A stretch of 64,000 nt of DNA from a virus. Where the stretch lies: the IMG/VR virus record IMGVR_UViG_3300037465_000480. One strand, given 5' to 3'. A model generated the notes under the pieces. That model was not told the origin of the DNA and made no database searches. It saw nothing but the letters and a program-made list of their open reading frames with translations. Of the stretch, positions 181-29,440 are shown in pieces; the first letter of the stretch is position 1, and every line of letters starts with the position of its first letter. The position numbers were made by a program, and so were the translations under genes.

Positions 181-245
181 AAAAAAACTCGCACATTCAT
201 ATATTATATTATATAATATAACAATGTGCGAGTTTCTAGTTTTAA
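181..245 (-). repeat. 65-bp nested palindromic element, copy 1 (inverted relative to copies 2 and 3)
   Basis: Arms AAACTCGCACATT (185-197) and AATGTGCGAGTTT (223-235) flank a 25-bp AT-rich spacer containing the palindrome TATATTATATAATATA; its reverse complement nearly equals 11341-11404. Confidence 0.9.
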
Positions 246-314
246 GACCATCAGTATAATAGCTATCGAAAAACAGGGGTTTGGGCAAGATGAACACCTA
301 ACCCCCCACCTCTC

Positions 315-337
315 ACCCCCCGCAAGGGGGTTTTGTT
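315..337 (+). terminator. Intrinsic terminator-like hairpin
   Basis: ACCCCCC-GCAA-GGGGGT followed by TTTGTT. Confidence 0.65.
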
Positions 338-359
338 ATCCAACAGCGGTGGGGGCATT

Positions 360-388
360 TTGATCTGGGGGGCATCTTGTGCTATACT
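360..388 (+). promoter_or_regulatory. Sigma70-type promoter with extended -10; predicted leaderless transcript starting at ATG 395
   Basis: TTGATC-17 bp-TATACT preceded by TGC; ATG lies 6 nt after the -10 and there is no Shine-Dalgarno. Confidence 0.65.
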
Positions 389-394
389 CATCTT

Positions 395-1108
395 ATGGGA
401 AACGTTACTGGCTGGATTAGCATAGATGACTGTCGATTGTGGGAGCGCAACCCTAACTTAGGGGATGTTCCCGCGATAAAGAGGAGCATTCAAGAATTCG
501 GTTTCCGAGGGGCTATTGCCCTGTGGCAAGATAACTTTGTCATGGGTGGCAATCATTCTGTGATGGCTCTGCGACAATTGCGAACCGAGGGATGGGAGCC
601 TTGGGGATCGGCGATTACCGCCACCTGGGAAGTTCCTTATATCGACATTTCCGATTTAGACCGAAAACAAGCCGAAAGCCTGGGGCTGGCTTTTAATCGT
701 ACTGCCCGCTTGGGGCATGACGACGATAAAATCCTGGCTGCTTTGCTGGCTGACTTGGAAAGCGACGATAACACCACCTTGCAAGATGTTATGCGCTATA
801 CCGTAGACGAAATTGACAGGATTACTTATGAGCCGGATGATCTCAAACCTGTTGGCGTGCCTAAAGATAGTGCAGGTACTGCGCGATCAACTTTTCGCAA
901 GATTAAACGGGCTTATGAAGGGCGCGATGTGCCTCGCCTGCTAAACTGGGGGGAACTCATGTTTCCTGTCCAAAAGGTTCTGTATGAAGCGGTACTGGCT
1001 TATTGCGAAAGCCAACCCGATATGAACAGGCGCGATGCTTTTCATCAATTGCTTAGACTCTCTCTCACTCATTTAGGCTTGCTAGAGGAGACAGAAGACC
1101 ATGCTTAA
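395..1108 (+). CDS. ParB/Srx-like nuclease-domain protein
   Basis: N-terminal WERNPN...AIKRSIQEFGF...MGGNH resembles the ParB N-terminal domain; start moved from TTG 377 to ATG 395. Confidence 0.75.
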   Translation: MGNVTGWISIDDCRLWERNPNLGDVPAIKRSIQEFGFRGAIALWQDNFVMGGNHSVMALRQLRTEGWEPWGSAITATWEVPYIDISDLDRKQAESLGLAFNRTARLGHDDDKILAALLADLESDDNTTLQDVMRYTVDEIDRITYEPDDLKPVGVPKDSAGTARSTFRKIKRAYEGRDVPRLLNWGELMFPVQKVLYEAVLAYCESQPDMNRRDAFHQLLRLSLTHLGLLEETEDHA

Positions 1109-2585
1109 AGTCGCCATTTTAGATGCCAATACTACCGGCGATGATACCACAGAAATGACTATTCACCTAACAAACAGTATGGTTGCCAATTGGTTGGCTT
1201 GGGAATTCGACAGCCGCAACGTCCCTATTTCTACGGATTATGCCACTAGCGACATCCTGTTTTTGGTCTACGCTGGGGCTGTCGATTGGCTGCCTGCCGT
1301 AAAACGCTTTTTGAAAAAACATGCTATCCCTAGTAGCCCTTCAGCCCGTAACCGGAAACCTTACATTATTACGGGGGGAGCTATAGACGTTGCTCCTTTT
1401 GTCGCCTTGAGCGTTGTTGACGCCTTAGCTGTAGGAGAGGCTTACCACTTTATCCGTTCCCTGATAGACCTATTAGAAAACGACAGTAGCCTAGAGGATA
1501 TTCGGGGATGGATTGTGGATTATCCCCATGCTATTGAACAAAGCCAGCTTTCCCCTTTAGCAGAAGACCCTGATTATCCTTATCTGTTGGCGTCGCCGCC
1601 CCCCAAGTTGGCATCCCCCGATGATTGGGTAGACTGGGAAGGGCAACCTTTAATCCGCAACGATGACAAGGTGGTGCGAATTGTGGCTGCCAAAGGGTGC
1701 CATTTGCGCTGTAAATTTTGCGCGACCACTTACCGCCAAACCTACCGCATTCATCCTCGGCAAGGCATGTTAGCCAAACAAGTGGAAGCCCTTAATGAGG
1801 CGGGAGAGCGCGTGAGCCTCATTACCAATGATGTTGGGGTGCTGCCCGCGCTCCATTTATTAGCTAACAAAGCGCAGCTGGATAGTCAGAGCTTGACCAT
1901 TAAATCAGTCAGAGACCCTGAAAACTTAGAGGCGATTATTGAAGCGAATACCAAGATTATTCGTTTTGGGGTAGAGGGCGTTTCCGAACGTGTCCGACAG
2001 GCTTTTGGCAAACCTATAGACGATGCCGAGCTAATTGACATCTTGGCTTATATCCATTCGCGACGCCGCAATAGCCAATTGTTTTTTATTGTCGGTAGCC
2101 CTTACGAAACCCGTGAGGATTGGGTAGCGCATGAGCGGTTTGTGCGTGCTCTTTTCAAACGGGTTGAATGGGGCGTCCTCAAGTTTAAGTACACGGCTTT
2201 TCAGCCTAACCCGCCGACCCCCTTAGCGAGGTTTTTGCCCGCCCGACAATACTACCGCAATATGGGGAAATTCAAAGATGACTATCTCAATGATTTTGTC
2301 AGCAGACATGGCCTCCTTATTTGGGCACGTAAACCCGATAACCTCATAGATACCTTGGCTGACGTGTACCACGTCCCGCGTGCTTATTTTCGCGAACTCT
2401 ATCACGATGAGGAAACCATAGACTTATTGCCTACTGTCGATATGGCACGGCGGGCGAAGTGGGAAGTAATCGACTGGCACTTAAGCCCTGATAAGCGATG
2501 GAACCTGGGGAATTCCTACGCCCGCACAATGGGGGCAATGGAACGCGCTCAACCTCAGTATGGGCTTGAAAAGTTAGAGGCTTGA
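1101..2585 (+). CDS. Radical SAM enzyme with B12-binding-like N-terminal region (TIGR03960-like)
   Basis: CxxxCxxC (GCHLRCKFC); AIP...RNRKPYIITGG...DALAVGE; GVEGVSERVR; FFIVGSPYETRED; FQPNPPTPL. Confidence 0.85.
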   Translation: MLKVAILDANTTGDDTTEMTIHLTNSMVANWLAWEFDSRNVPISTDYATSDILFLVYAGAVDWLPAVKRFLKKHAIPSSPSARNRKPYIITGGAIDVAPFVALSVVDALAVGEAYHFIRSLIDLLENDSSLEDIRGWIVDYPHAIEQSQLSPLAEDPDYPYLLASPPPKLASPDDWVDWEGQPLIRNDDKVVRIVAAKGCHLRCKFCATTYRQTYRIHPRQGMLAKQVEALNEAGERVSLITNDVGVLPALHLLANKAQLDSQSLTIKSVRDPENLEAIIEANTKIIRFGVEGVSERVRQAFGKPIDDAELIDILAYIHSRRRNSQLFFIVGSPYETREDWVAHERFVRALFKRVEWGVLKFKYTAFQPNPPTPLARFLPARQYYRNMGKFKDDYLNDFVSRHGLLIWARKPDNLIDTLADVYHVPRAYFRELYHDEETIDLLPTVDMARRAKWEVIDWHLSPDKRWNLGNSYARTMGAMERAQPQYGLEKLEA

Positions 2586-2587
2586 TC

Positions 2588-3130
2588 ATGGCAGCACCCC
2601 GAACGCAGGCACTTAAAGAATATCACCGAACCCAAATCGCCCAATTTTACCTGAAACAATATACTCAGGCAGAAATGGCGGATATGTTGGGTATCAGTAT
2701 TCAGACCGTTAATGCTGACCTCAAAGCAGTTCGGCATATGTGGGCTGAAAGTGCCATCTTCGATATGAACGAGGCAAAACAACGGGAGCTGGCACGAATA
2801 GACCAATTAGAACGCGAATACTGGCGGGCTTGGGAAGAAAGCCAAAAAGAACAAACCACTGCAAAAACCAGGGGGCGGATTGAGACGGAAGAAAGCGATG
2901 GGGACACCTACACTATCCCTGAGGCTTACGAAACCCAGCGGCAGCCCAGGTTGGGCGACCCCCGCTATCTGCAAGGCGTCCAATGGTGTATTCAGCAACG
3001 CTGTAAAATCTTGGGTATTGAGGCTCCGACTCGACAGGACATTACGTCAGGCAATCATCCCCTGTTTGATTTAGCCTCGTTATCAGAAAGTCAACTAGAG
3101 GCTTTAGCCAGAGGGTTGCAAGACGGATGA
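2588..3130 (+). CDS. terS: Terminase small subunit (HTH)
   Basis: HTH-like YTQAEMADMLGISIQTVNADL; overlaps the start of terL. Confidence 0.75.
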   Translation: MAAPRTQALKEYHRTQIAQFYLKQYTQAEMADMLGISIQTVNADLKAVRHMWAESAIFDMNEAKQRELARIDQLEREYWRAWEESQKEQTTAKTRGRIETEESDGDTYTIPEAYETQRQPRLGDPRYLQGVQWCIQQRCKILGIEAPTRQDITSGNHPLFDLASLSESQLEALARGLQDG

Positions 3131-4542
3131 TTGCGCCAGGCAGCCGCAGCCTGCTAAAAAAAAGGGTCTCCCAAGAGTTAGCCTGGCGGCAGTATCAAAA
3201 AGACGTTTTCCTTTTTGTCGACGACTGTTGCCAAATTTACGATAACCTCGCCCAAACCTGGATACCCTTTGTCCTCTGGGATTTTCAAAAAGAGGCTTTA
3301 GCCACCATCCAAGATAACCGCCTGGTGGTTTGTCTCAAGGCTCGCCAGGTAGGGTTAAGTTGGTTGGTTGTCGCCTATCTCCTACACGAATGCTTGTTTT
3401 CCCCTATTCAAGATATTCTCATTTTTTCCAGGCGCGAAACCGAAAGCATCCACTTGCTACAGGAACGGCTTATTGCTATGTATCATCATTTGCCTTATTG
3501 GGTCAGGCAGCGCGTGAGCATCGCCCAGCAAAATCAAACCTATCTCAAATTGAACAATGGCTCGGTAGTCAGGGCTTTCCCAACGGGGGTAGGCGATACC
3601 TATACAGCCACCATTGCTTTTGTGGATGAGGCTGACCTTGCTCCCGATATTGACGTTACCATTGCCAGCGTCAAGCCAACAATTGATGCTGGGGGGCAAC
3701 TGATTTTGCTAGGGAGGGTTAACAAAAGAAAGCCTGGGAGTCCCTTCAAGCAGATTTTCCAGTCTGCCAGCTTGGGCGAAAATGGTTATGCCCCGCTCTT
3801 TATCCCTTGGCATAGCCACCCCCTAAGGACGGCAGCCTGGTATGACAAGATCAAGCAGGAAGCTATCAATTTAGATGACGTGTACGAACACTACCCCAGC
3901 ACGCCAGAAGAAGCCTTATTGCCAGCCAGTACTGGAAGGGTTTATCCTGAGTTTTCTATATCAGGAAATGTTTCCCCTGAGGTAGCTTACGCCCCTGCTT
4001 ATGAAGTGGAATGGTGGTGTGACGATGGCTATACCAATCCGTTGGTCATCTTGTTTGCCCAACGGCGACATTGGCAGGGGCAGCCCGACTGCTTGGTTAT
4101 CTTTGACGAAATTTATATTACCCGCACTGACCATGACGAGGCTATTCGGTTAGCCTTGCAAAAGCCCTATGCCCCCCCTAGTGTCATCTGGTGTGACCCA
4201 TCAGCCACGCGGCTAATCTCCCGATTTACCCATGTTCGTAATTATGGTATGCTGGATTATGGTATCAAGCCATTTTCAGCCAGAGTTAACGCAGCCGTTA
4301 ATAAAGTGGCTGACGGCATCAAAGCAGTGAGATCAAGTATTGGCAGTGAACGGACGCCACGACGCCTAATCATTTCTACCCGCTGCCAAAATGTTATTAG
4401 GGAAATGAGCCAATACATGTTGTCCGAACATGGCACCCTTGGGGGAGACCCGCAGCCTATCAAAGAAAACGACCATACCTGTGATGCTATTCGTTATGGT
4501 CATACCCCTAACTTGTATAAGGACGGGTGGTTAAGTGAGTAA
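3127..4542 (+). CDS. terL: Terminase large subunit
   Basis: Walker A region KARQVGLSW, Walker B AFVDEAD, nuclease motifs CDDGYTNP and NDHTCDAIRY. Confidence 0.92.
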   Translation: MIAPGSRSLLKKRVSQELAWRQYQKDVFLFVDDCCQIYDNLAQTWIPFVLWDFQKEALATIQDNRLVVCLKARQVGLSWLVVAYLLHECLFSPIQDILIFSRRETESIHLLQERLIAMYHHLPYWVRQRVSIAQQNQTYLKLNNGSVVRAFPTGVGDTYTATIAFVDEADLAPDIDVTIASVKPTIDAGGQLILLGRVNKRKPGSPFKQIFQSASLGENGYAPLFIPWHSHPLRTAAWYDKIKQEAINLDDVYEHYPSTPEEALLPASTGRVYPEFSISGNVSPEVAYAPAYEVEWWCDDGYTNPLVILFAQRRHWQGQPDCLVIFDEIYITRTDHDEAIRLALQKPYAPPSVIWCDPSATRLISRFTHVRNYGMLDYGIKPFSARVNAAVNKVADGIKAVRSSIGSERTPRRLIISTRCQNVIREMSQYMLSEHGTLGGDPQPIKENDHTCDAIRYGHTPNLYKDGWLSE

Positions 4543-6535
4543 CGGCAACAGAACCATTCCGCCCACCCCTATTCCCGAAATTGCGGCTATTGAAACGATA
4601 CAACAGCCAGGGGTGATTGATTCTCCTTTAGCCATGGGGGCGGGCAGCCCTATAGATGGGTGGTTACTGGCTTATGACCCGAACCGCTTGTCTTTGCCCC
4701 CTTGGTGGTCTAAAGGAAGAGACCGCGTACTGCGTCAATATGTGAGAAGTTCCCTTATCCTTAGCAGTGTTGTGTATCAACGGGCGGCAGTCAATAAAAA
4801 TACGGGCTGGCGCATTGAAGTGAAAAATGACCAAGCGGAACCGAGTCTTGACCACTATACAGCCCTCATTCAAAATGCGCAATTTGGTGAGGGGTTTCGT
4901 GCTTTTATTGAACTGGTTACTCAGGATTTACTTTGCCAAGATAACGGCGCATTTATAGAACTGATTGGCGAGGGCGAAGAGCAAGCCTATAGTTATGGGG
5001 GGCAAACGTTCCGCGCCTTAGGGTGGCTCCCTAAGGAACGCATTATTGGTTTTGCCCATATCGACTCCGCCCAGGTTTGGCGAACCAATAATCGAGAATT
5101 CCCTTTTGTGTATACCAACCCCTGGAATGGCAAATTTACCATTCTGCATTGGTCGCGCATGATAGGGCTGTCCCAACTGACCCAACCTATCCAGCGAGGG
5201 CGGGGTATTGGACTGTGTGCTGCCAGCAGGGCTTTTGCTGCTTTGGAAATCATGGAGACCAGTAATCAATATGTGACCGAAAAAATGACAGGGCAATCCC
5301 CCGAAATTGCGATTGCTAAAGGGGTGGCAATTGAAGCTATCCGTGCTGCCTTAAAAGACAATGCTATAGAACGGGACGCTCGCGGGATGGTTCGCTATAA
5401 AGGCATTGCCTTTGTCGAAGGCGACCATTTGCCCAGCGGCGACCCCAGCATTCAGATTGTCGGCATAAAAAACACACCTGACGGGTGGGAACGTGAAAAG
5501 GAAATGACACTGTCCATCTATATGATCGCGATGGCATTTGCGACTGACGTAAGGGACTTGGGGTGGGCTGCACAGTATGCAGGAGACACAAAAGCTGACG
5601 CCGAAGTGCAAGATCAAAAAACGGCTAATCGCGGGCGGGCTGACATCATGCGTGATCTGGCTGATGTTATCACGCGCCGTATTCTCCCCCCAGGGCTGGC
5701 TTTTGAATTCGATGAACAGGATGATTTAGCCGACCGCCACAAAGCAGAAATTGAACATATCAGGGCGCAAACCCGCAGCCTGCGCATTACCAGCGGGGAA
5801 ATTACCCCTCATGAGGCGCGAGAAATTGCAGCCAAAACGGGCGACCTCGATCAGCGTTATTTGGCTAGCCATGTGGTGAGCGATGAAAGCAGTAATCCCC
5901 TTGTGGAATTACCAGAGGAGAAAGCCACTTCTTTTAGCAGCCTACACCATCAATTCATGGTCAAGTTCAGAGCAGCTTTAAATCGGTATCGCAAGACGGG
6001 GAATTTTGCTACCTTGCTAAACGAATGTCGCCCCCTCATCAATAACTATGGCACACGGGCTTTTTTGCAAGGCGTTAATGATGGGGGAGCCAGAGGAGCC
6101 AAGCTGTCTGACTTGACAGCCGAAGAGCTTGGCAAAATGCAGAGCCTTATTCAGCAACAAATAGACTACTTAAATAATCTAAGAGGGCTAGAAATTGATA
6201 GTCGCGCTGTTGCCAGCGAACGCGCCGAATTGTGGGCCAACAAGGGGTTAGACCATATCTACTTTTCTGGTATGTTGGCAGGTAATCAAAACGCCAATTT
6301 AGAATGGTTCTTAGGAGCCACAGAAAAGCACTGTCGAGATTGTCTCAAATACGCTGGGCGCGTGTACCGTGCTAAGACGTGGGAAAAGCATAAGATTGTG
6401 CCACGATCAGGCTTGCTAGAATGTAAGGGGTATCGTTGCGACTGTCGCTTTGAACGCAGTGATAAGCCCCTTAATCGGGGTAGACCACCTTCCCCCAGTG
6501 GCGCGAAAAAAGGACAGCACCACCATGAGCATTAG
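4535..6535 (+). CDS. Portal protein fused to a C-terminal MuF/SPP1 gp7-like head morphogenesis domain
   Basis: Follows terL; portal-like DLLCQDNGAFIEL; C-terminal EKHCRDC...CKGYRCDCRF Cys motif typical of MuF-like domains; 666 aa. Confidence 0.78.
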   Translation: MSNGNRTIPPTPIPEIAAIETIQQPGVIDSPLAMGAGSPIDGWLLAYDPNRLSLPPWWSKGRDRVLRQYVRSSLILSSVVYQRAAVNKNTGWRIEVKNDQAEPSLDHYTALIQNAQFGEGFRAFIELVTQDLLCQDNGAFIELIGEGEEQAYSYGGQTFRALGWLPKERIIGFAHIDSAQVWRTNNREFPFVYTNPWNGKFTILHWSRMIGLSQLTQPIQRGRGIGLCAASRAFAALEIMETSNQYVTEKMTGQSPEIAIAKGVAIEAIRAALKDNAIERDARGMVRYKGIAFVEGDHLPSGDPSIQIVGIKNTPDGWEREKEMTLSIYMIAMAFATDVRDLGWAAQYAGDTKADAEVQDQKTANRGRADIMRDLADVITRRILPPGLAFEFDEQDDLADRHKAEIEHIRAQTRSLRITSGEITPHEAREIAAKTGDLDQRYLASHVVSDESSNPLVELPEEKATSFSSLHHQFMVKFRAALNRYRKTGNFATLLNECRPLINNYGTRAFLQGVNDGGARGAKLSDLTAEELGKMQSLIQQQIDYLNNLRGLEIDSRAVASERAELWANKGLDHIYFSGMLAGNQNANLEWFLGATEKHCRDCLKYAGRVYRAKTWEKHKIVPRSGLLECKGYRCDCRFERSDKPLNRGRPPSPSGAKKGQHHHEH

Positions 6536-7022
6536 AGTCGTTGTAAAAAAAATAGGTAGACCACGCAAAAAACCTGCTAATGCTCCTGCCCTCATACAAG
6601 CAGCCTTAGATAAAGAGGCAGAGGCTGTCAAAAAGGACTTGGCTAGCCCCACCAAAACATGGGCACGAAAACCTTTATTTGTGGTTCGGAGAAAAAGGAA
6701 ATATACATTTGAAGTAACCACTGGTGATTTTATTTATGGTCTCCTTGACCAAGGAACGGTACCGCATATCATCGCAGCCAAAAACGCGCCCACCCTCGCT
6801 TTCAATACGCGCCCTAAATTTTCACCTAAAACCACCCCCCACAGCTTGCGGGCTAAAAAAGGAAAGAAACCAGTATCCTCCCCCGTTTTTCCTCTGGCAG
6901 TATACCACCCTGGTACTGAAGCTAGAGAATGGGTTGTCTTGGCAAATGAGAGAAGTCGTATTAGACTAAAGAAAGCAATGGATAAAATAGCGTCAAAATT
7001 AGCCAAGGGAAAAGCCTCATGA
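6525..7022 (+). CDS. Basic virion protein, possibly HK97 gp10-like neck/tail-completion protein
   Basis: Lys/Arg-rich; YGLLDQGT...HIIAAK...LAF and VYHPGTEAR motifs; ATG at 6525 after AAAGGA. Confidence 0.45.
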   Translation: MSIRVVVKKIGRPRKKPANAPALIQAALDKEAEAVKKDLASPTKTWARKPLFVVRRKRKYTFEVTTGDFIYGLLDQGTVPHIIAAKNAPTLAFNTRPKFSPKTTPHSLRAKKGKKPVSSPVFPLAVYHPGTEAREWVVLANERSRIRLKKAMDKIASKLAKGKAS

Positions 7023-8239: not shown

Positions 8240-8271
8240 GTTAGCCAGAAAGCGTTAGGAGGCGTCAGACT

Positions 8272-9876: not shown

Positions 9877-9891
9877 GCTGGTTAGTGGTTA

Positions 9892-9919
9892 TCTGGCGGC
9901 AAAAGAGCCGCCAGATTTT
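9892..9919 (+). terminator. Intrinsic terminator after the capsid gene
   Basis: TCTGGCGGC-AAAAGA-GCCGCCAGA then TTTT. Confidence 0.7.
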
Positions 9920-9935
9920 CTGAAAGGCAACTCAC

Positions 9936-10232: not shown

Positions 10233-10235
10233 ACC

Positions 10236-10706: not shown

Positions 10707-10736
10707 TTGTTTCCTAACCATACACTAGTGTATACT
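10707..10736 (+). promoter_or_regulatory. Internal promoter for the 10771 gene
   Basis: TTGTTT-18 bp-TATACT; spacer CCTAACCATACACTAGTG shares CTAAC...GTG with the promoters at 42657 and 43745. Confidence 0.55.
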
Positions 10737-10770
10737 ACACTAAAGATAAGGAGATAAAGGAGTATCCGTT

Positions 10771-11340: not shown

Positions 11341-11404
11341 TTAAAACTAGAAACTCGCACATTGTTATATTATATAATATAATATATGAATGTGCTAGTT
11401 TTTT
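11341..11404 (+). repeat. 65-bp nested palindromic element, copy 2
   Basis: TTAAAACTAGAAACTCGCACATTGTTATATTATATAATATAATATATGAATGTGCTAGTTTTTT, immediately upstream of the GT2 gene. Confidence 0.9.
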
Positions 11405-11413
11405 AATTCACAA

Positions 11414-22300: not shown

Positions 22301-23061
22301 ATTCCGCTATCAAATCGCTAGTGGCTCCTGATGGGTTACTGGGAGAAAACGGGGCATTTATCACAGGGATTGATGCTATCTTCGCCCCTGGTGGGCTTTT
22401 AGATACTGCGATAGCCAGTGTGCCAGCCATCTTTACTTCTATGCGGAAAAATATCGAAAATGCCATTACCAACTTAATGACCTGGTTAGATCTTAATTTC
22501 GTGAGCAAATTTGAAGCAGGCAGGGATGCCGTGATAGGGGCTATTCAAGCAGTGATCGACAAGTTTGGTAATTTTGCCTCTGAATTAGGGGGGGCTTTGT
22601 CAGGCTTAGGGCAAGCCTTGGTTGCGCATTTCGGGATGCCTGTACAAGACATCTTTAATCGCATTCTGACGGCGGCTGAATCAGCTATCAATTTGTTGAT
22701 TGATGGGTACAATGCTATCCCTGCCCTGCCTGATATAGGGCATGTTTCTTTTGGGAGTGTCAACATCTTTGGGGCGGCTAAAGGGGGGCGCAATCTCAGG
22801 GGGTGGGGTATTGTAGGAGAAAGGGGCCCTGAATTAATCTATCTCCCACGTCCTGCCGATATTATCCCTAACCGCGAAAGCGAAAACCTGCTTTCTTCCT
22901 TAGCCTCGCCGCGTCCTATTCCTTTACCCCCTACGCAGCGCGAGGGATTTGGCACCCAGAATATTGACCGTAGCCGCATTTATAACAACACCTTCAATAA
23001 TGCCGGACCTGATGAGGCATTATTGACCTTACGTATGATGGAGGCTTTCGGTAGGTCATGA
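19372..23061 (+). CDS. Tape measure protein
   Basis: 1229 aa, Ala/Gly-rich amphipathic helices; C-terminal GIVGERGPELI motif. Confidence 0.92.
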   Translation: MGSGLERSGVELVVIGADKAVTDLNRFNTALGKLQSESGRGVGLITFNRTMGQVTTSMGKMGGGLQGLLSKFSGAGRQMGAFAQVMGMVSPAAGGAIASTTGLTAALGTLGATAGAVALPLVAATAALAGFAALGARGANLQPTLMAFGNLVGSVTDAGAALEQMRKDTRGTIADFELMRLATSSLVGTNRAFREAVVKDFGLIVDAANRIATATGQSAEVVREKFIRGLRLGSKRLVDDIGVIVDASKAYETYAASIGKSATALTDSEKQTAFAMAAIEQLKTSIGEFGEPIAVLDALKIPLVAITNILDKLGLALQPIFTPFVQGIAALFSALQTGATYLISIFASFAQAVGALITGIASIFRAFFNLVFGGFFRLAGQILPYVVAGFKLFWMGVKAAITGITNIVVGVLNTFASVRDKIFGGLNIDIEKLAFNMARGGGYVIGSFAAGLLRGGTFVVRAVTKIAQIVADFLQGFSPPKTGPLSEIDEGGKNVIRTWADGFIKGFMNPAEQVAEQVNEKLGEIASFSKEQVASRLEALELSIRPFVEQLKIAKAEMEAIAGWVDPALEAVERQRKRALELFAQGKISAEQLRELDEQFEMLTLFKNQQQEIVDSATIQLAIAQSQIATEKALLEIQGERLKGQEAIADLAEDIAKPEVPAKGGTGEKEPKPAKEGAGAGAGAAAGAGEASPAEEPSVPFEGGAAPQILDPAAVQHAMEVLGAGAARGLENSGYHEAVAAFEESTAGLSTQIQRIAESDPIQSIKDKFAGLENVANAPLEALKSAFRGAVSFIEGVLKGLERGVQATFGFITGIVNTFVNIFNTILSMMGTALQNVLGSAGGQRIIRDFQTAWQGLQSVFNGVREVVGGVLTAIYNFFVGKIVNGIIPIIDSLVTIFNNVKEALNSFAGTVSSTFSKAITPIEELITTLGQRLFETLDTVAATIGDKLAPISNAFGSVFGFGEDAAQAVGEGVDIHSAIKSLVAPDGLLGENGAFITGIDAIFAPGGLLDTAIASVPAIFTSMRKNIENAITNLMTWLDLNFVSKFEAGRDAVIGAIQAVIDKFGNFASELGGALSGLGQALVAHFGMPVQDIFNRILTAAESAINLLIDGYNAIPALPDIGHVSFGSVNIFGAAKGGRNLRGWGIVGERGPELIYLPRPADIIPNRESENLLSSLASPRPIPLPPTQREGFGTQNIDRSRIYNNTFNNAGPDEALLTLRMMEAFGRS

Positions 23062-24281
23062 CGGTTTTTTTAGGGGATTATCAGTTAGCAGTCTATCATC
23101 CTCTTACGCGGGTTTTGCTGGATATTGTTACACAAGACAGATGGTTTGATCTTAAATACTCCCTGGTGTTGAACGGGGTAGGCAGGTTGCGAGTGAGCTT
23201 GCCGATTACTGACCCGCTGGTTGATTGGGCAACGCTTACTGATGTCATTGTGGTGGTAATGCGCCGCCATACCGAAAATGGCATTTTTGAAAACGAGGGA
23301 GCCTATCTCATCAGGTATTCCGATACTTCCGAAATTGACGAACGGACAGGACGCGAAATTGTTATCTTGGCAGGGCAGCACGCAAACCACCTGTTAGCCA
23401 GGCGTCAGATTAATGTAGACGATGACCCTGTAGGCGTTGCAGGGTTTGTAACTCGATCAGGGGACGCGCCCCTGGTGATGGGCGATTATGTGCGTTACCA
23501 ATGTGTTGATCCGCAAGTCAACACCTTTAGGGCAATGCCTTACTTTTTGATTGCTCCAAGTGAACTACGCTCCTACTTTGATACTTTCCAGAGGCGCAAT
23601 ACTGACGATAACCTGTTGGCAGTGTTACAAGAAATTGCCAATCAAGACCAAAACACCTGGTGTGATTTTACGGTTGAATATGAACATCCTTACTTTGTTT
23701 TTTATCCGCGCCAAATAGGAACGGATAAAAGCGAAACCGCTAATTATCTGGATTTTTTACTCTTTAACCCTAAACGCGGGAACCTTACCAAGCCAAGGCT
23801 TACTTGGGATAGGGACGAGGAAATTACAGGATGCTATGTGGCTGGTCAGGGGCTAACCGCTGATCGGGTGTTTATTTTATTCACGGCGGATACCAGTGAA
23901 GATAGTCCTTACAACTTGATAGAGGCTGTCACTGATGGGCGAAGTTATGAGAGCTATTCGGAGATTGAGTCCGCAGGTATTAGCTACTTAAACGAACATC
24001 GGGCTGAACAAAAATTTGAGTTTGAGCTAGATATAGATGGTCAAGCATCGCGTTATCGTGTAGACTGGGAATTAGGCGATATTGTCAGTGTGGGCTATGT
24101 TGACTATGCGGAAGACCATCGCATTATTCAGGTAGAGGTTACATTAGGTGGGGGGTTTGAGGAAAGGATAAAAATTAAAACCCAAAAATGGAGACTGACG
24201 GTAGCCTCTGCTGGAGCTTTGCTTATTGACAGTGATGGGTACTTTTTGCTTGACAGTGACGGATATTATCTGAGCGATTAA
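23058..24281 (+). CDS. Minor tail/baseplate hub protein (Tal, ReqiPepy6 gp37-like)
   Basis: Follows the TMP; YVAGQG...R and YRVDWELGDIVSV motifs. Confidence 0.72.
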   Translation: MTVFLGDYQLAVYHPLTRVLLDIVTQDRWFDLKYSLVLNGVGRLRVSLPITDPLVDWATLTDVIVVVMRRHTENGIFENEGAYLIRYSDTSEIDERTGREIVILAGQHANHLLARRQINVDDDPVGVAGFVTRSGDAPLVMGDYVRYQCVDPQVNTFRAMPYFLIAPSELRSYFDTFQRRNTDDNLLAVLQEIANQDQNTWCDFTVEYEHPYFVFYPRQIGTDKSETANYLDFLLFNPKRGNLTKPRLTWDRDEEITGCYVAGQGLTADRVFILFTADTSEDSPYNLIEAVTDGRSYESYSEIESAGISYLNEHRAEQKFEFELDIDGQASRYRVDWELGDIVSVGYVDYAEDHRIIQVEVTLGGGFEERIKIKTQKWRLTVASAGALLIDSDGYFLLDSDGYYLSD

Positions 24282-24286
24282 AGACA

Positions 24287-25489
24287 ATGCCACCTAATCC
24301 CGTACCTACCCGCCAAATAGATAACGATGCCGTAATCCAGTGGATTAGGCGTGTCGTCAGGTCTTCTATACCAGGCAGCCTGCCTGATAGTGGCTTTATC
24401 TTTGATTGGTTCGAAACCGATGGTTATCATTGGATTAACAGCGCAGGAACGGAATACGTAGCCGCTTACGACAGCTTAGCGAATGTGGTAGCTACCCGCT
24501 TTAAAGTAGCCAGCGCGACCATTGTCACCTTGTCCAGCGACGCTTTTACAGCAACCCTGCCTTATCATATTGTCGCCGCCGAAACAGGTACGGCTGACAA
24601 TTTAGCCACCATCACCGCAGCCAGCGGCAACACCTTTCTCATTATTCAGCCTGATGTTGGTGATACCATTACCGTTAAGCACGGTATGGGTAACATCTTC
24701 CTTAATGGGGCGGCTGATATTGCGTTGTCTGGCAACATGACCTTGCTCCTGTTCTATGATGGCACTAACTGGGCGGATTTGGGGGCTGGCTCCTCTGGAA
24801 GTGGGGCGCCAACGAATGCGACCTACATTACCCAAACCCCGAATGGAACCTTAAGCAATGAGCAAGCCCTTTCTGCTCTGGCTACAGGTATCTTGAAAAG
24901 CACCACAGGCACGGGTGTGGTGTCTATCGCTGTAGCAGGTACGGACTATTCGGAACCTTTAACGGTTAAAGAAATTGATGGGACGCCGAGTGCCTCACCT
25001 GTGAAAACGATCAGGGTGGAAAACGGAACCTTGACCAATGACGGGGGTGGGCAAGTCACCATCAAACCCTATCTCATCCTCAACCTTAATCCCACAGCTT
25101 TCACGGGGTCAGTCGACCCTTACGGGTCAACATCCATGACAGCGGCAGCCCAAAACAGGCGGTTTACGGGGATTATCCCCATTGGCTACACAACCATTGC
25201 CAAAATGCGGGCGCGATTTGTCATCACAGGGGCAGCAGGCAATGAACAAGGGGACTGGTATATCGGGGCTGACGCAATAGATGAGGTGGCAGGAGCGAAT
25301 GTGGTTTCTACGCTAAATGCGACATTAACGCTTACTGCCAATGGCGATATACACGAATACAACCTGGATAGTTTGGCTTCCAGTCTGACCATCGCCGAGG
25401 GCGACAGTTTAGGAGTACGGTTCGTTTTTGATCGTATCGGCGGGACTGCCACAATTGAATTAATGAGCGTAGAGGTGTGGTTACAATGA
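24287..25489 (+). CDS. Tail fibre / minor tail protein
   Basis: Thr/Gly/Ala-rich; VAAETGTADNLATI and APTNATYITQTPNGTLSNEQAL segments are fibre-like. Confidence 0.62.
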   Translation: MPPNPVPTRQIDNDAVIQWIRRVVRSSIPGSLPDSGFIFDWFETDGYHWINSAGTEYVAAYDSLANVVATRFKVASATIVTLSSDAFTATLPYHIVAAETGTADNLATITAASGNTFLIIQPDVGDTITVKHGMGNIFLNGAADIALSGNMTLLLFYDGTNWADLGAGSSGSGAPTNATYITQTPNGTLSNEQALSALATGILKSTTGTGVVSIAVAGTDYSEPLTVKEIDGTPSASPVKTIRVENGTLTNDGGGQVTIKPYLILNLNPTAFTGSVDPYGSTSMTAAAQNRRFTGIIPIGYTTIAKMRARFVITGAAGNEQGDWYIGADAIDEVAGANVVSTLNATLTLTANGDIHEYNLDSLASSLTIAEGDSLGVRFVFDRIGGTATIELMSVEVWLQ

Positions 25490-25920
25490 CCGTCACAGTA
25501 AGCGTCCCTTGGAAACCGAGTTTTTATCCTGCTTTGGAATTAGCGATTAAAAACGCGCTACCCCCTACAATCGCTTTCCAAAGCGGTTTCAAGCCCCCTA
25601 ATCGCGGCAATATCCTGCAAATCGAGGGGGAGTTTTCATCACAAGAGATTACAACTTTACAAGCCATTCTTGATGGTCACGCCAGCCTGAGTCCGTCTGC
25701 CAGCCAAGCCAGCATTACAGCGAATGGGGTAGCAGAGTCGGTGGTGACAGTCCACGGACTGACCACGTTCAATTACAGGGTGTGGCTGAGTGGGGTGGTG
25801 GTGCTGAGTGGGACGATCAGTGATGGCAGTTTGGAATATAGCACGGACACACCTGGGGCGTATACGATTGAAGTGATGGATGGAAATAGCACGGGGTATG
25901 TAGAGGTGGTGGCAAATTGA
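25486..25920 (+). CDS. Hypothetical tail-associated protein
   Basis: Overlaps neighbours by 4 bp; beta-rich C-terminus. Confidence 0.5.
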   Translation: MTVTVSVPWKPSFYPALELAIKNALPPTIAFQSGFKPPNRGNILQIEGEFSSQEITTLQAILDGHASLSPSASQASITANGVAESVVTVHGLTTFNYRVWLSGVVVLSGTISDGSLEYSTDTPGAYTIEVMDGNSTGYVEVVAN

Positions 25921-26444
25921 AAAAACATTGGCTTTATCTCAAGTATGTTTTGCGCCATAAGTGGTATGTGTTTCTGGCGTGCCTGGAATATGGCTTGGTC
26001 TGGCGCGGCATTAAACACGATTGGACGAAGTTTCTGCCCTCGGAATGGTTTCCCTATGCTGAATATTTTTATGGGGACAAGCGTCCTGACGTGGGGACAA
26101 CTGGTTATAATCACGCTCGGCATCAAGAGGATAAACAGTTCAATTATGCCTGGAATCACCACCAGAAACGCAATCCCCATCACTGGCAATATTATGTTGT
26201 CAATTATGACGATGGTCGCACATTCGTACTCGAAATGCCCAAAGCAGATATGAAGGAAATGTTATGTGATTGGCGCGGCGCAGGTAGGGCACAGGGAAAA
26301 CCCAACATTTGGGAATGGTATGAAGCCAACAAAGAGAAAATGCAATTGCACCCTGAAACCCGTGCCTGGATTGAAGCAGAATTGGGCAAACAACGTAGAA
26401 AACACGAACAAGAAATGCGCTTACGGCAGTTAGGAATTTTGTAG
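25917..26444 (+). CDS. DUF5662-like (HD-type, His-rich) protein
   Basis: RHKWYV...HDWTKF...AWNHHQKRNPHHWQY...EMLCDW pattern. Confidence 0.65.
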   Translation: MKKHWLYLKYVLRHKWYVFLACLEYGLVWRGIKHDWTKFLPSEWFPYAEYFYGDKRPDVGTTGYNHARHQEDKQFNYAWNHHQKRNPHHWQYYVVNYDDGRTFVLEMPKADMKEMLCDWRGAGRAQGKPNIWEWYEANKEKMQLHPETRAWIEAELGKQRRKHEQEMRLRQLGIL

Positions 26445-26452
26445 GAGTCACT

Positions 26453-26641
26453 ATGGCAAAAGTACAGTACACCAGCGACCAAGCAAACGCCCTCAAAGCG
26501 AAAGCCCAATTTAATCAGGCTTACGAAGCCCTCACTACGGGTTGGGCGGCTCTCGATCAAGCTGGCAAACAAGCTGCCTTACAGCAAGGATTGATGGTAA
26601 CCATGCGGATTGTGCGCTATATCATGGGACGCTTGTTATGA
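26453..26641 (+). CDS. Hypothetical protein
   Basis: RBS AGGAG; 62 aa; coupled to the next gene. Confidence 0.55.
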   Translation: MAKVQYTSDQANALKAKAQFNQAYEALTTGWAALDQAGKQAALQQGLMVTMRIVRYIMGRLL

Positions 26642-27039
26642 AAACCACAGAAGACCGCTTGGCTGAAATACAAGCACAATTACGCAATGTGCAAAAGCAA
26701 TCTGTTCGCAGTGAGGTTACAGGGGGAATACAATCTGCTCTTTGGAACGAATTACCTGCGGCTTATCAGGTAGGGCGCGTGTATGTGGTGACAGACATAT
26801 TACAAGGGGTGCTTTTCCTCGATATGGGCAGCGATTTGGGCTTTTTGCCAATCGGCATGTTGCCCAATCTAACAGTAGCGGAATTGCAGTCTTCTAGTAA
26901 TGTGCCTACTGGGGCGATGGCTTTAGCTACCAACGGGAGACGGACAGGCGAATTAGGCGAGCATGGTAGCGGATGTCCCGTCTGGTTTGATGGGGTGGTA
27001 TGGCGTACCTTTTATGATAATTCTGAGGTTTTGGCATGA
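26638..27039 (+). CDS. Hypothetical tail-associated protein
   Basis: ATG overlaps the previous stop; ALATNGRRTGE...CPVWFDGVVW. Confidence 0.5.
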   Translation: MKTTEDRLAEIQAQLRNVQKQSVRSEVTGGIQSALWNELPAAYQVGRVYVVTDILQGVLFLDMGSDLGFLPIGMLPNLTVAELQSSSNVPTGAMALATNGRRTGELGEHGSGCPVWFDGVVWRTFYDNSEVLA

Positions 27040-27935
27040 TAACCGAATTGCATTCGATTACCACAGCAGACGGGCAAACCTACATTCTTAACGACGGAGT
27101 AAGCCGCTGGGTATCTGTACCAACACCAGGCAATTTAGGACTTCCCCCTTTTAAGGCGGTAACGGAAAGAGGATACAAGCAAAATAGGGAAAATGAAGTA
27201 TCGCTGTATTTGCAGCCTAGAACATTGCAAATCACGTTTCAACATAACGGATGCAGCCGTGAGGAATATTGGCAAATGAGAGCCGCCCTACTAGACATCT
27301 GCCGCCCTAACAGAGAGGGGCTGGCAGTCTATACCTTCATTAACGAGGCGCGGGTTAAGCGTGCCATTCAAGGCAGGATACAATCCCCTACGTTTGCCGA
27401 AAGCGATATTGAAGAATGGAAAGAATGGGAGTTTAACGAACCTATTCAAATAGATTGTTACGACCCCACCTTTTACGACCCTGACATCAAACAAGCCTCT
27501 TTTGTGCATACGGCGGCTGACCCTGCTTTGGTCTTCCCCGCTGCTTTTCCTATCTATTTTGACAGTGCCATAGATGCTTACAATGCTGCTATCGCTTACC
27601 ATGGCACATGGGAAACTTTTCCCATCTTGATTGTCACAGGACAGGCACAGGGGATTATTATGGAGCATGAGGATTTAGGCTTGTTTATCTATTTTTTGGG
27701 CACGGTAGCGGTAGGGGAGACCTTAACGATTGATTTACGCAACCGAACCGTAGAGAGTGATTTGAAAGGCAACCGCTTTACCGAACTGGCTCCTATCAGT
27801 GATTTAACCTCTTGGAGACTCCTACCAGCCCCGCAAGTTAGCGGGGGCGTGAACAATATCCAGATTGGGATAGACGGAATAACCCCAGAAACCACAGTCA
27901 CCTTACGCTTTTATGAGAGGTACATCGGCATATGA
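27036..27935 (+). CDS. Distal tail protein (Dit, siphovirus tail component)
   Basis: YLQPRTLQITF, DCYDPTFYD, YHGTWETFPILIVTG, ETLTIDL and LLPAP..GVNNI motifs typical of Dit. Confidence 0.72.
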   Translation: MITELHSITTADGQTYILNDGVSRWVSVPTPGNLGLPPFKAVTERGYKQNRENEVSLYLQPRTLQITFQHNGCSREEYWQMRAALLDICRPNREGLAVYTFINEARVKRAIQGRIQSPTFAESDIEEWKEWEFNEPIQIDCYDPTFYDPDIKQASFVHTAADPALVFPAAFPIYFDSAIDAYNAAIAYHGTWETFPILIVTGQAQGIIMEHEDLGLFIYFLGTVAVGETLTIDLRNRTVESDLKGNRFTELAPISDLTSWRLLPAPQVSGGVNNIQIGIDGITPETTVTLRFYERYIGI

Positions 27936-29368
27936 CCATCACCACGCGCCCTTATGATGGCAGCGGTTTATCAGGCGATAGCGGGCCTTATAGCAGTGCC
28001 CAATGGCGCAAGACCTGGTTTGATTTACTGGGGAAACGGGGAAGCGCGACCAATAACGCTGGCAACCTGGGGGTGTTGTATGGGGTGTTAAACGAATTAA
28101 GGGTGGATGCCAACAGCCCAGCTGCCATGAACGTTAAGGTCAAGAGCGGGGCGGCTTGTATTCAAGGTATGTGGCTCGAAAACGATGCCGATGTTACCGT
28201 AACCGTGCCAAGCAATTCGACAGGCTCAACCCGCTATGACATCATTTATGCCCAATATGATGCAACCACCCGCTTAGGCAGTATCAATATCGCTGTAGGC
28301 ACGACTGTTTTACCCACCCTCACCCAAAGCCTGGGGGGAACCTACCAAATACCTTTAGCTTATCTGGCTGTCCCCAATGGCGCAACCAGCATAACAGCGG
28401 CGATGATTTTTGATTATCGCGGCTGGGCGAATATGCCAGAGACAGTAGGCACGCTTGTGCAAAACGTCTCTGGGGGGGCTTTGGATCATGGCGATGTGGT
28501 TGTCTGGTCTACGAGTACCAGCAGGGGGGTAACGACTAGCAGCACTGCCTTAAATCACGTAGCAGGGGTGGTCGAAGGCTATATCCCGAATAATGGGTGG
28601 GGAAGGATAATCACCAAGGGAGTACACCGCGTTAACATTGGCGGAAATACAGTGGCTAGAGGGGATGTTCTGTCACAGTCTACCAGTGTGAAAGTGGCGG
28701 CTGCCTTGAATGCCCTAACCTCTTTTGCTGTGGCTGTGGAACCATCTTCAGCAGTGGTGAATGGGCGCATTCTCGCAGAAATAAACGCCCTTCCTTTTCC
28801 GCGTATTATGACCGCGCAAGGCGATTTAATTGTCCTCAATAATGCTAACCAACATGTGAGGAGAGCGCGACCGACAAACGGTTTTCCCCTGATTGGTGAC
28901 AGTAGCCAAGCCACAGGTTACAAGGATGGGGGGCAACTTAAAACTTCCATTGTCAGGATGGGAACCAAACTCACGCTGACAGGGGATTTAGCCATTACCG
29001 CAGGGGTGGCTACTGATATTACCTGGCAAAATGAGGTTTACGATTCCAATACCTTTATTGCAGTCCCAGCAGTATCTATCACTATTCCATCAGGGTTGGG
29101 AGGTCTTTACCTGGTATTGGGCAATCTGGATATTGGCAGCGGTTCTGGCGGGAGTTTATTGATGGAACTAAAAGTTAATGGTGTGGTAGTGCTAAATTTG
29201 CGTGGGGTGACAACGGCTACACGGGCAACCGCTTTCTTTAGCGTCCCCTTGGTAATGTCGGCTGCGGATGCTTTGAAAGTGACCGTCACCATCACAGGTG
29301 GGGCAACCCATACCCTGTATTCAGGCACTGCCAACACGTTTTTTGCTATCGAATATCTAGGTACATAG
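27932..29368 (+). CDS. Upper baseplate / receptor-binding tail fibre protein
   Basis: MNVKVKSGAACIQG...RYDIIYA...YQIPLAYLAVPNGATSI..IFDYR N-terminus; C-terminal beta-sandwich. Confidence 0.68.
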   Translation: MTITTRPYDGSGLSGDSGPYSSAQWRKTWFDLLGKRGSATNNAGNLGVLYGVLNELRVDANSPAAMNVKVKSGAACIQGMWLENDADVTVTVPSNSTGSTRYDIIYAQYDATTRLGSINIAVGTTVLPTLTQSLGGTYQIPLAYLAVPNGATSITAAMIFDYRGWANMPETVGTLVQNVSGGALDHGDVVVWSTSTSRGVTTSSTALNHVAGVVEGYIPNNGWGRIITKGVHRVNIGGNTVARGDVLSQSTSVKVAAALNALTSFAVAVEPSSAVVNGRILAEINALPFPRIMTAQGDLIVLNNANQHVRRARPTNGFPLIGDSSQATGYKDGGQLKTSIVRMGTKLTLTGDLAITAGVATDITWQNEVYDSNTFIAVPAVSITIPSGLGGLYLVLGNLDIGSGSGGSLLMELKVNGVVVLNLRGVTTATRATAFFSVPLVMSAADALKVTVTITGGATHTLYSGTANTFFAIEYLGT

Positions 29369-29375
29369 AGGGGTA

Positions 29376-29440
29376 TTAAAACGAGAAACTAGCACATTCA
29401 TATATTAGATTATATAATATATAAATGTGTAAGTTTTTCA
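29376..29440 (+). repeat. 65-bp nested palindromic element, copy 3 (most diverged)
   Basis: TTAAAACGAGAAACTAGCACATTCATATATTAGATTATATAATATATAAATGTGTAAGTTTTTC; same orientation as copy 2. Confidence 0.85.

Follow-up and report, generated by a model that had tools for sequence, protein, structure and literature searches.

The presence of three copies of one long palindromic cassette in a phage genome raises the question of whether such elements are sites of DNA rearrangement, as well as binding sites or signals read in RNA. The window, i.e. the whole stretch of 64,000 nucleotides that was analysed, contains a circular phage genome of 45,312 bp read 1.41 times, so that the two further cassette sites in its second part are copies 1 and 2 again (Table 1), and the cassette occurs exactly three times per genome unit. 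The phage is tailed, uncultured and of freshwater origin. An independent JGI contig was 100% identical over copies 1 and 2, Logan contigs from two studies carried the copies with the same flanks as the reference, and a 28-kb Logan contig ran from copy 2 through copy 3 in the reference arrangement. The agreement of these assemblies indicates that the sites are not assembly artefacts.

Table 1. Palindromic cassettes and neighbouring control features, in positions of the window.
Feature	Position	Strand	Details
Copy 1	178..245	- (canonical)	Dyad 185-235; repeated at 45490-45557
Copy 2	11341..11408	+	Dyad 11351-11401, then T6; stop codon 11321 upstream, next ATG 11414; repeated at 56653-56720
Copy 3	29376..29441	+	Dyad 29386-29436, then T5; stop codon 29368, ribosome-binding site GAGGTG 29446-29451, ATG 29456
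GC-rich hairpin, distal T6 run	137..175	+	After the last small early ORF, just before copy 1
Ordinary GC-rich intrinsic terminator	315..340	+	Between copy 1 and the first late promoter
Promoter TTGATC-17-TATACT	360..388	+	TGTGC immediately precedes the -10 box; 6 nt separate the promoter from the ATG of the ParB-like gene at 395
Early-type promoter TTGTTT-18-TATACT	10707..10736	+	Lies in the head block and drives a short unit up to copy 2
Terminator (30899-30934), then promoter TTGTTT-17-TGcTATAAT	30899..30959	+	The late gene string actually ends here, and the replication block begins

Re-alignment recovered the three sites where an earlier note on this DNA had placed them, with slightly refined extents, and confirmed the parts that it had described, namely conserved arms, an AT-rich core of about 25 bp and, in copies 1 and 2, an inner palindrome of that core (TATATTATATAATATA). 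The cassette is non-coding and spans about 68 bp, made of a 51-bp dyad and polar flanks. In the dyad, 13-bp arms (AAACT[C/A]GCACATT) surround a nearly pure A/T core, the spacer between the arms being exactly 25 bp in all three copies; the 5' flank reads TTAAAAC[T/G]AG, and the 3' flank is a run of five to seven T residues, T7, T6 or T5 standing directly 3' of each dyad in the canonical orientation. The cassette contains three AAACTNG heptads, including an extra AAACTAG, and its CACATT and AATGTG boxes lie 31 bp apart, centre to centre, which is about three helical turns. Copies 2 and 3 have an uncompensated mismatch at arm position 6. Every copy has TTAA at its left edge, and at the right edge the copies read TTAA, TCAA or TTAT. 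The reverse complement of copy 1 shares 97% identity with copy 2 over 68 nt, and copy 3 shares 83-85% with copy 2. The alignment bore out the inversion of copy 1 relative to the two others, its canonical strand being the minus strand. As to the asymmetry of the element, it holds for the flanks, which are the main seat of polarity, but the core of copy 3 aligns as a mosaic of both orientations.

The cassette is a real element, confined to this phage lineage. Matches to the pattern AAACTMGCACATT-N20-30-AATGTG fell solely at the cassette sites, and 100 dinucleotide shuffles gave none; across the genome, the arm at up to two mismatches was found only as the six arms of the three sites, and the flank TTAAAACTAGAAACT only at the cassettes, plus one match with three mismatches per genome unit. 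Searches of 2.9 million viral contigs (IMG/VR), of JGI metagenome contigs and of 185,579 GTDB genomes gave no cassette from outside this phage, the few matches being unrelated hairpins. Conservation in related phages, which the earlier note had proposed as a check, failed to appear, relatives at about 50% protein identity being devoid of the motif. Any function of the cassette would hence be dispensable or recent, since these relatives manage without it. In run X1, the unitig common to copies 1 and 2 had a depth of 120, about twice the phage depth, which argues against an abundant extra source of the cassette in that run.

The surroundings of the copies are informative as to their role. Copies 2 and 3 start 19 and 7 nt past a stop codon and end 5-15 nt upstream of the next ribosome-binding site or start codon, and the distance from dyad centre to the next ATG is 38, 45 and 185 bp across the three copies. 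Copy 1 lies at the end of the early operon, and copy 2 at the end of the unit driven from 10707. The claim that the palindromes sit exactly at module boundaries was only partly right, copies 2 and 3 being internal to a string of late genes that runs uninterrupted in relatives. There, the matching junctions are 22 bp and 0-1 bp long, or carry an ordinary terminator, which designates copies 2 and 3 as lineage-specific inserts into a co-transcribed late operon. Without the cassette, the spacers would shrink to about 20 bp, similar to what the relatives have, and each copy adjoins DNA without a counterpart in at least one relative. In one relative (L056), the junction between a variable gene and GT2 bears an ordinary GC-rich terminator, then a promoter-like TGTGCTATTCT beside the ATG. 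At unit boundaries in the present phage and in another relative (L061), terminators are paired with promoters.

Promoters were defined here by a -35 box TTGnnn and a -10 box TAnnnT, 16-18 bp apart and facing the downstream gene. The genome has seven convincing ones, all with a TTG -35 box and all located in other gaps. In the gene direction, none of the cassettes contains a TTG -35 box 16-18 bp from any -10-like hexamer, which speaks against a plain sigma-70 promoter, and a conserved -35 box is absent from them in both directions. The only matches of the promoter scan within the cassettes run antisense (TTAAAA-16-TATTAT and TTGAAA-16-TATTAT), and the -10-like hexamers in the palindromes are explained by the A/T-richness of the core. 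The regulatory reading of the earlier note, operators or late promoters, thus survives only in a broad form, as a transcription-boundary element, while its sigma-70 promoter version is unsupported. No TTG-type promoter was found between 11322 and 30797, those of the late region being only at 360 and 10707, so that transcription must cross copies 2 and 3 or start inside them.

The cassettes look most like leaky transcription-boundary hairpins, more so than DNA-rearrangement sites. The reading that we favour, to which we give a probability of about 0.35 from sequence features, is an RNA hairpin followed by a U-tract, acting as a leaky terminator or as a processing or stabilising site. One cassette of about 68 bp would have spread within the lineage, into the early/late control gap and into two short intercistronic spacers of the late operon. 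Its transcript would form a hairpin of 22-25 bp, with GC-containing lower arms and an AU-only upper stem, then a U-tract, and this RNA would behave as a leaky intrinsic terminator (attenuator), possibly also as a site for double-strand-specific processing or 3'-end stabilisation; we infer that the element works as RNA and that it stops transcription only in part. Copy 1 would help to close the early operon. Copy 2 would end the small unit started at the internal early-type promoter and lower expression between the head genes and the glycosyltransferase and tail genes, and copy 3 would provide a second step-down, ahead of the membrane-protein genes. The inversion of copy 1 would be tolerated because a hairpin forms in either orientation.

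RNA folding of both strands gave -19 to -27 kcal/mol, with z scores of -4.4 to -7.4 and no shuffle equalling them. On the plus strand, the tails are T6 (copy 2), T5 (copy 3) and TTTCTAGTTTT (copy 1). Approximate Carafa-type scores for this strand were -1.5 for copy 2, -22 for copy 3 and -16 for copy 1, versus +6 to +17 for ordinary terminators of this genome by the same formula; such borderline-to-weak values agree with leakiness. By this approximate formula, copy 1 alone reached a high score on the minus strand (+28). Two analogies point the same way: the promoter at 10707, its gene and copy 2 recall the promoter-gene-terminator layout of a phage 'moron', and the terminator at the equivalent junction of L056 may be a positional counterpart of the cassette. 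Several features go against the hairpin reading. The A/U-only 25-nt upper stem differs from the short GC-rich terminators of this genome, the mismatch at arm position 6 lacks compensation, and copy 1 scores best as a terminator towards the minus strand, on which no credible gene was seen. Moreover, the near-identity of copies 1 and 2, the exact spacing and the three heptads exceed the needs of a hairpin, and would suit a protein site.

These last features lead to a tentative but quite conceivable explanation, in which the sites are operators with dyad symmetry for a single phage DNA-binding protein that would activate, repress or act as a roadblock. A dimer or tetramer of it would bind the 13-bp arms as well as the extra AAACTAG heptad, spanning an A/T core that is flexible or can melt, and would thereby govern transcription into the blocks of head, tail and membrane genes. 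The conserved arms with their fixed spacing, placing the boxes about three helical turns apart, and the limitation to three sites without stray half-sites are in line with it, and a dyad would by nature be indifferent to orientation. Other regulatory repeats of this genome, namely promoter repeats of 70 bp and 62 bp, likewise consist of near-identical copies, and large control-region palindromes occur in relatives, i.e. a 56-bp perfect dyad in the L038-type relative and a 45-bp dyad over a TTGACT-17-TATAAT promoter in L061. Candidate binders would be the product of a 53-aa ORF at 45084, ribbon-helix-helix-like by eye and without a family match, the ParB-like protein and the integrase-like protein. 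Operators would nevertheless leave the polar T-run and the TTAAAAC flank unexplained, the distance to a -10 box or a start codon is not fixed, there is no conserved -35 box, and the junctions of relatives have no equivalent, contrary to what a conserved late-control site would predict. It is unlikely that the cassette is a palindromic insert without function, selfish or neutral (of MITE or REP type, or from an illegitimate duplication), that landed three times in tolerant intergenic DNA, even if it is lineage-specific, discrete and present in both orientations, leaves short spacers once removed, and shows in copies 1 and 2 an identity suggestive of recent spread. The TTAA edges give a faint hint of target duplication, but are not consistent with one across the copies; no copy was found outside the phage in the three collections, run X1 revealed no abundant extra source, and no transposase was found in the phage. 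The element accordingly differs from MITE/REP-like mobile palindromes, in having neither outside copies nor a consistent target-site duplication.

A role in replication or segregation, as dispersed origin-type elements or ParB-like loading sites, appears rather improbable to us. In one version, initiator sites would surround an A/T core that melts easily or forms a cruciform, as in HSV oriS; in the other, the copies would resemble the scattered centromere sites of the phage-plasmid N15. An A/T-only core within inverted arms, with a one-sided third box, is an origin-like architecture, and as single-stranded DNA the sites reach folding energies of -10 to -19 kcal/mol (z -4.5 to -8). Copy 3 is followed at 1.5 kb by genes for an SF2 helicase and a primase, copy 1 is followed at 150 bp by a ParB-like gene (PHROG 723, E 9e-22), and hairpins on both sides would shield copy 1 from transcription. 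Against this, copies 2 and 3 occupy actively transcribed operon junctions, and in L061, which shares the helicase, the primase and a 682-aa module with 40-49% identity, the 21.7 kb that were read contain no comparable palindrome. As to ParB-parS, defined by a parS-type palindrome of about 16 bp with ParA and ParB, no ParA partner was found and the arms are unlike parS by eye. It is similarly improbable that the cassettes are DNA sites rather than RNA signals in a wider sense, either as three dispersed elements of origin type or sites where the helicase or the ParB-like protein is loaded, whose core would melt or extrude a cruciform and whose inverted copy would set a defined geometry of replication or condensation, or as the smallest self-spreading palindromic element so far observed to move within a phage genome.

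Site-specific recombination, which the earlier note had put forward with an inversion of the 11-kb head block between copies 1 and 2 and an excision of the 18-kb tail block between copies 2 and 3, is in our view highly improbable. Inverted and direct repeats are present as needed, the 13-bp arms equal those of loxP in length, and an integrase-like gene, the sole recombinase-like one, lies at 41403-42326. The spacer of 25 bp nevertheless departs from the 6-8 bp of tyrosine-recombinase core sites (lox, dif, FRT or attP core, with 9-13-bp arms), the dyad length is odd, and excision between copies 2 and 3 would lose tail genes. The integrase-like protein matched only N-terminal SAM-like models, while its L057 homologue also matches the catalytic PF00589. 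No serine recombinase was present among the scanned ORFs, Pfam and PHROGs scans of about 45 ORFs giving no resolvase/invertase family, and the geometry of Hin/Gin-type invertases (26-bp sites, 2-bp crossover) differs from that of the cassette. The contigs, which drop rare forms, contained no junction of an inverted or deleted form, and the independent JGI and Logan assemblies show the reference arrangement only, so that the recombination claim is poorly supported. The three copies and the odd-length, imperfect 51-bp dyad do not fit a protelomerase target of the telRL type, which is one perfect palindrome of even length beside a protelomerase gene, and protein family scans of the phage ORFs detected no protelomerase-like protein.

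Known systems resemble the cassette in part. Lambdoid phages have intrinsic, partly bidirectional terminators and the promoter-gene-terminator 'moron' layout. Likewise, the cassette hairpin comes right after a stop codon and precedes a T-run, its A-rich opposite side would give a weaker tail in the reverse direction, and copy 2 closes a unit with its own promoter; unlike intrinsic terminators, its stem is unusually long, with an A/U-only upper half and borderline scores on the transcribed strand, and the three copies share sequence well past folding needs. The RNase III sites of phage T7 (R0.3 to R18.5) are hairpins between cistrons that span about two turns of the helix and have an internal loop; they are mutually different in sequence and without a U-tract. 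The cassette hairpins share this build and are similarly placed inside long polycistronic transcripts, where a downstream promoter is unnecessary, but are near-identical, possess a U-tract and are only putative cleavage sites. Dispersed dyad operators, such as the C1 operators of phage P1, the inverted repeats of phiC31 and the 17-bp dyads of Cluster O mycobacteriophages, number from about 14 to dozens per genome and measure 13-17 bp; they share with the cassette the recurrence of one conserved dyad at several intergenic places, but not its 51 bp, long A/T spacer and three copies. HSV-1 oriS/oriL comprise an A/T-centred palindrome with inverted protein boxes and a one-sided third box, in three copies per genome that encodes an SF2 helicase. 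The A/T centre, third box, copy number and encoded SF2 helicase are alike, whereas initiator binding is only conjectural for the cassette and a relative with the same replication genes lacks it. Promoter-early stem-loops (PeSLs) of T4-type phages are cassettes that combine a terminator with a promoter; they occur in dozens of transcription-oriented copies, with a clear sigma-70 promoter and a short stem-loop (PMC2839356, PMC4122927). Both are short conserved non-coding repeat cassettes in intergenic positions beside lineage-variable DNA, with a stem-loop thought to be a terminator. By contrast, the present cassette has three copies, one inverted, a 51-bp dyad, a 25-bp A/T core and no recognisable -35 box, hence no sigma-70 promoter joined to its stem-loop, and contigs showed neither a mini-circle of the PeSL type nor a deletion junction for it.

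If the cassettes are attenuators or processing sites, one lineage of a syntenic phage group would have re-tuned its 30-kb late operon with a ready-made hairpin cassette at two junctions and no new promoters, a compact case of regulatory evolution by cassette duplication, and the cassette could perhaps be used as a portable insulator part. Protein sites, if that is what they are, would form a clean three-site regulon for a yet-unnamed regulator. The practical value is modest pending host or RNA data. The phage group has no cultured member, and a weak lead suggests that the host may belong to Chloroflexota.

The cassette is a real and statistically solid element: the earlier note had described a palindrome at three sites with the first copy inverted, and this was confirmed, shuffled sequence giving no such site. 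Three copies are found per genome unit. Read 5' to 3' in its canonical order, the cassette comprises a flank TTAAAAC[T/G]AG, an arm AAACT[C/A]GCACATT, a 25-bp core of almost pure A/T which is palindromic in itself, an opposite arm AATGTG..AGTTT, and two to four extra T. The first heptad of the arm is repeated in the left flank, so that each cassette carries the AAACTNG box three times, twice in direct and once in inverted orientation. Copy 2 and the reverse complement of copy 1 share 97% identity over 68 nt, and between copies 2 and 3 the identity is 83-85%; the core of copy 3 is a mosaic of both orientations, which indicates that a consistent polarity of the cassette resides in the flanks. 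Arm and flank have no occurrence elsewhere in the genome, and the cassette folds strongly as RNA (both strands) and as single-stranded DNA.

The window is one circular or permuted genome of 45,312 bp read 1.41 times, since its bases 1-18688 are identical to 45313-64000. All credible genes lie on the + strand, and include those for siphovirus tail proteins, two glycosyltransferases, an SF2 helicase, a primase and an M23 peptidase. A 104-aa minus-strand ORF beside copy 1 (45059-45373), the sole long one near that copy on that strand, was rejected as a gene: its sequence reads as non-coding, and two short plus-strand ORFs covering the same DNA (45084 and 45269) look genuine. The orientation of copy 1 thus does not follow a gene. 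Two freshwater metagenome studies contain the phage, and over 15.3 kb it has 100% identity with a JGI contig. In INPHARED, no match was found at the DNA level or for the capsid protein, and the terminase matched at only about 30% identity. Terminase and endolysin neighbours give weak hints of a host in the phylum Chloroflexota. In the genome unit (1-45312), GGCC occurs 12 times versus about 159 expected from base composition, GATC 70 times versus about 177, and the cyanobacterial HIP1 octamer GCGATCGC not at all, which suggests restriction-site avoidance.

Coordinates of the cassettes and surrounding features, with junction lengths in this phage and its relatives (L038-type, L056 and L061 contigs)
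Feature	Position or length	Detail
Cassette copy 1	178-245	inverted
Cassette copy 2	11341-11408	
Cassette copy 3	29376-29441	
Junction before GT2 gene (copy 2)	this phage 92 bp; L038-type 22 bp	
Junction before GT2 gene, L056		GC-rich terminator and promoter-like TGTGCTATTCT next to ATG
Junction after 478-aa tail gene (copy 3)	this phage 87 bp; L038-type 1 bp; L061 0 bp	
Variable DNA right of copy 1		ParB-like and radical SAM pair
Variable DNA left of copy 2		unit from 10707 promoter
Variable DNA right of copy 3		first two membrane-protein genes
TTG-type promoters	360, 10707, 30931, 39534, 39596, 42657, 43745	from scan
Ordinary short GC-rich terminators	315-340, 30899-30934, 40526-40558	
Large terminase	3127-4542	
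Tape-measure protein	19372-23061	

Promoters were sought in intergenic DNA as TTGnnn-16/18-TAnnnT, with at least 5 of 6 consensus positions in the -10 hexamer. Seven matches were counted, several being near-identical repeats of one another; a further one at 30771, flagged as intergenic, overlaps the stop codon of the gene before it and was left out. From the positions of promoters and terminators, the late gene string is therefore placed at 395-30797, with the terminator at 30899 closing it and a separate promoter at 30931 serving the replication block. The scan found no TTG-type promoter from 11322 to 30797. Transcription of the genes for glycosyltransferases, tail and membrane proteins must therefore either traverse copies 2 and 3 or begin within them. 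The -10-like hexamers in the palindromes are accounted for by the A/T-rich core; in the gene direction no -35 box accompanies them, and the only scan matches point antisense. A promoter in the right arm, where TGTGC-TAGTTT resembles the TGTGCTATACT promoter at 360, was dropped as the main reading because the hexamer varies (TAGTTT, AAGTTT, GAGTTT) and its best versions are not consistently gene-facing. By eye, the cassette matches none of the sigma-54, CRP, LexA, Fur and T4-late motifs. On a Carafa-type terminator score, the + strand gave -16 for copy 1, -1.5 for copy 2 and -22 for copy 3, the ordinary terminators of this genome gave +6 to +17, and the minus strand of copy 1 gave +28. The copies would be leaky at best on the transcribed strand, which is exactly what the absence of downstream promoters requires.

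Comparison covered L038-type contigs (39.7 of 48 kb), L056, L057 and L061 (21.7 kb). The nearest relatives by large terminase reach only 51-54% identity; L061, found via a protein database, has the tail, helicase, primase and 682-aa genes in common with this phage, and likewise an all-plus layout. Structural gene order is conserved. The search of related phages for which the earlier note had called gave no match: neither this motif nor any analogous repeated large palindrome occurs in the four relatives read (L038-type, namely L038, L039 and L040; L056; L057; and the 21.7 kb of L061). The junctions that hold copies 2 and 3 are short in the L038-type relative, as is that of copy 3 in L061, and spacers of about 20 bp are left in this phage once the 68-bp cassette is subtracted; on this comparison, both copies are lineage-specific insertions into co-transcribed junctions. 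Every copy adjoins DNA missing from at least one relative, the third membrane-protein gene (192 aa) being common to this phage and L061. Elsewhere, a loose pattern gave eight chance matches in IMG/VR, all without the A/T core, and a strict two-arm pattern gave 14 unrelated, mostly terminator-like hairpins in JGI metagenome contigs and GTDB genomes. The phage's own contig was not recovered from the IMG/VR, JGI and GTDB collections, which thus do not include the source sample. Rfam gave no match at the cassette sites, and a helicase search of IMG/VR yielded no relatives.

From a mechanistic point of view, the cassette is confined to this lineage and probably exerts a regulatory effect through the transcript. 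Our preferred reading, tentative at a probability of about one in three, is a boundary hairpin acting in RNA as an attenuator, a processing site or a 3'-end stabiliser which would be leaky on the transcribed strand and pass late transcription downstream. In favour of this reading, copies 2 and 3 come immediately behind stop codons, a U-tract follows the hairpin, read-through is needed, L056 has an analogous feature at the corresponding position, a moron-like unit ends at copy 2, and a hairpin tolerates either orientation. A protein may instead recognize the cassette as a dyad operator, a possible reading suggested by an upper stem of A/U alone, the invariant spacing, the triplet of AAACTNG heptads, the close match between copies 1 and 2, and the best terminator orientation of copy 1, which faces the wrong way; large dyads in control regions of two relatives show operator use of this kind in this phage group. 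A selfish insert is unlikely, no donor family having appeared in any collection searched, and an origin or ParB site is slightly more doubtful still, given that L061 has the same replication genes yet lacks the element. Something else takes up the remaining probability.

Site-specific recombination, the other function proposed in the earlier note, is highly improbable, and the cassettes are very probably not a rearrangement system. Tyrosine-recombinase sites have a crossover region of 6-8 bp, which the 25-bp spacer does not fit. The integrase-like protein matches N-terminal models only (its L057 homologue additionally matches a catalytic model), and ORF scans revealed no serine recombinase. 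Assembled contigs were in reference order only: one from JGI covers copies 1 and 2 together, and one of 28 kb from Logan extends from copy 2 across copy 3. In the two DNA runs the remaining contigs end within copies 1 and 2, as expected from the 55-nt unitig, at twice phage depth, that these copies have in common; no inversion or deletion joint was seen in contigs of these runs, which may miss rare recombinants. A lone "opposite strands" joint proved to be copy 3 aligned onto copy 2. The nearest described kind of element is the PeSL, the promoter-early stem-loop cassette of T4-type phages (PMC2839356, PMC4122927). The present cassette lacks the recognizable promoter that defines a PeSL, and its size, number of copies and orientation are different; we therefore call it a repeated intergenic boundary cassette of a phage, and not a PeSL.

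Other control elements were observed. At 360-397 (= 45672-45709), a TTGATC-17-TATACT promoter after TGTGC leaves 6 nt between its end and the ATG of the ParB-like gene, a spacing that predicts leaderless or near-leaderless late mRNA. In L056 (14620-14650), TGTGCTATTCT lies 7 nt upstream of the GT2 gene ATG, and a promoter nearly abutting the ATG may be a family trait. A 70-bp repeat (42646-42715 and 43734-43803, 94% identical) carries TTGACA-18-TATACT, with a small palindrome CTGCTTAGCAG in the spacer and CTGTAAGTACAG just past the -10 box, both likely operators of early promoters; its second copy falls within the long ORF called at 43639, which thus probably starts near 43810. A tandem 62-bp duplication (39517-39640, 98% identical) has a TTGCAA-17-TAAAAT promoter in each unit, and a perfect 18-bp inverted repeat GTTCCCGCTCGCATTGGC with an 18-nt loop lies between two early genes (43167-43220). 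Sequencing run X2, from the second metagenome study, shows seven substitutions and two one-base indels clustered within 70 bp (44937-45005) around a perfect 13-bp hairpin (44976-45005), with four other differences across the rest of the 19 kb compared.

Among the relatives, L038 carries at 8926-8981 one perfect 56-bp palindrome (28+28, no spacer), in a divergent control region by a long TATA-rich tract. It is single-copy in 39.7 kb, identical in three assemblies and absent from IMG/VR; its length recalls protelomerase targets, but no such gene was seen. In L061, a 45-bp palindrome (18614-18658) overlaps a perfect TTGACT-17-TATAAT promoter, and a conserved translation-start region AAAGGATTGAACGATG occurs five times (9529-9553, 13356-13380, 13582-13605, 17758-17774, 18886-18902), twice following AAACTAGAAA, the 10-mer that also forms the cassette's left flank. 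The gap after its membrane-protein genes (8430-8870) holds two terminator-plus-TGnTATAAT cassettes and sequences with the tRNA T-arm motifs GGTTCGAATCC and GGTTCGAGTCC. Tail-gene order at 24287-29368 is not that of the L038-type relative (13195-18104 of its contig L060), where the 494-aa tail gene comes before the homologues of 25477-25920 and 26453-26641. In this phage these genes lie upstream of the 26542-29368 genes, accompanied by two additional ones, a 400-aa gene and a DUF5662 gene. A 108-aa protein (39120-39446), the only early gene product in common with the L038-type relative, weakly matches Holliday-junction resolvase and VRR-NUC nuclease families (Pfam E about 0.01; PHROG 5702 E 1e-7), and a nuclease of this kind could cut extruded cruciforms. 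Finally, a 454-aa replication-block protein (34887-36251) has a Gp3-like "recombination directionality factor-like" domain (PF18897, E 2.5e-13) and is conserved in L061 (14224-15372).
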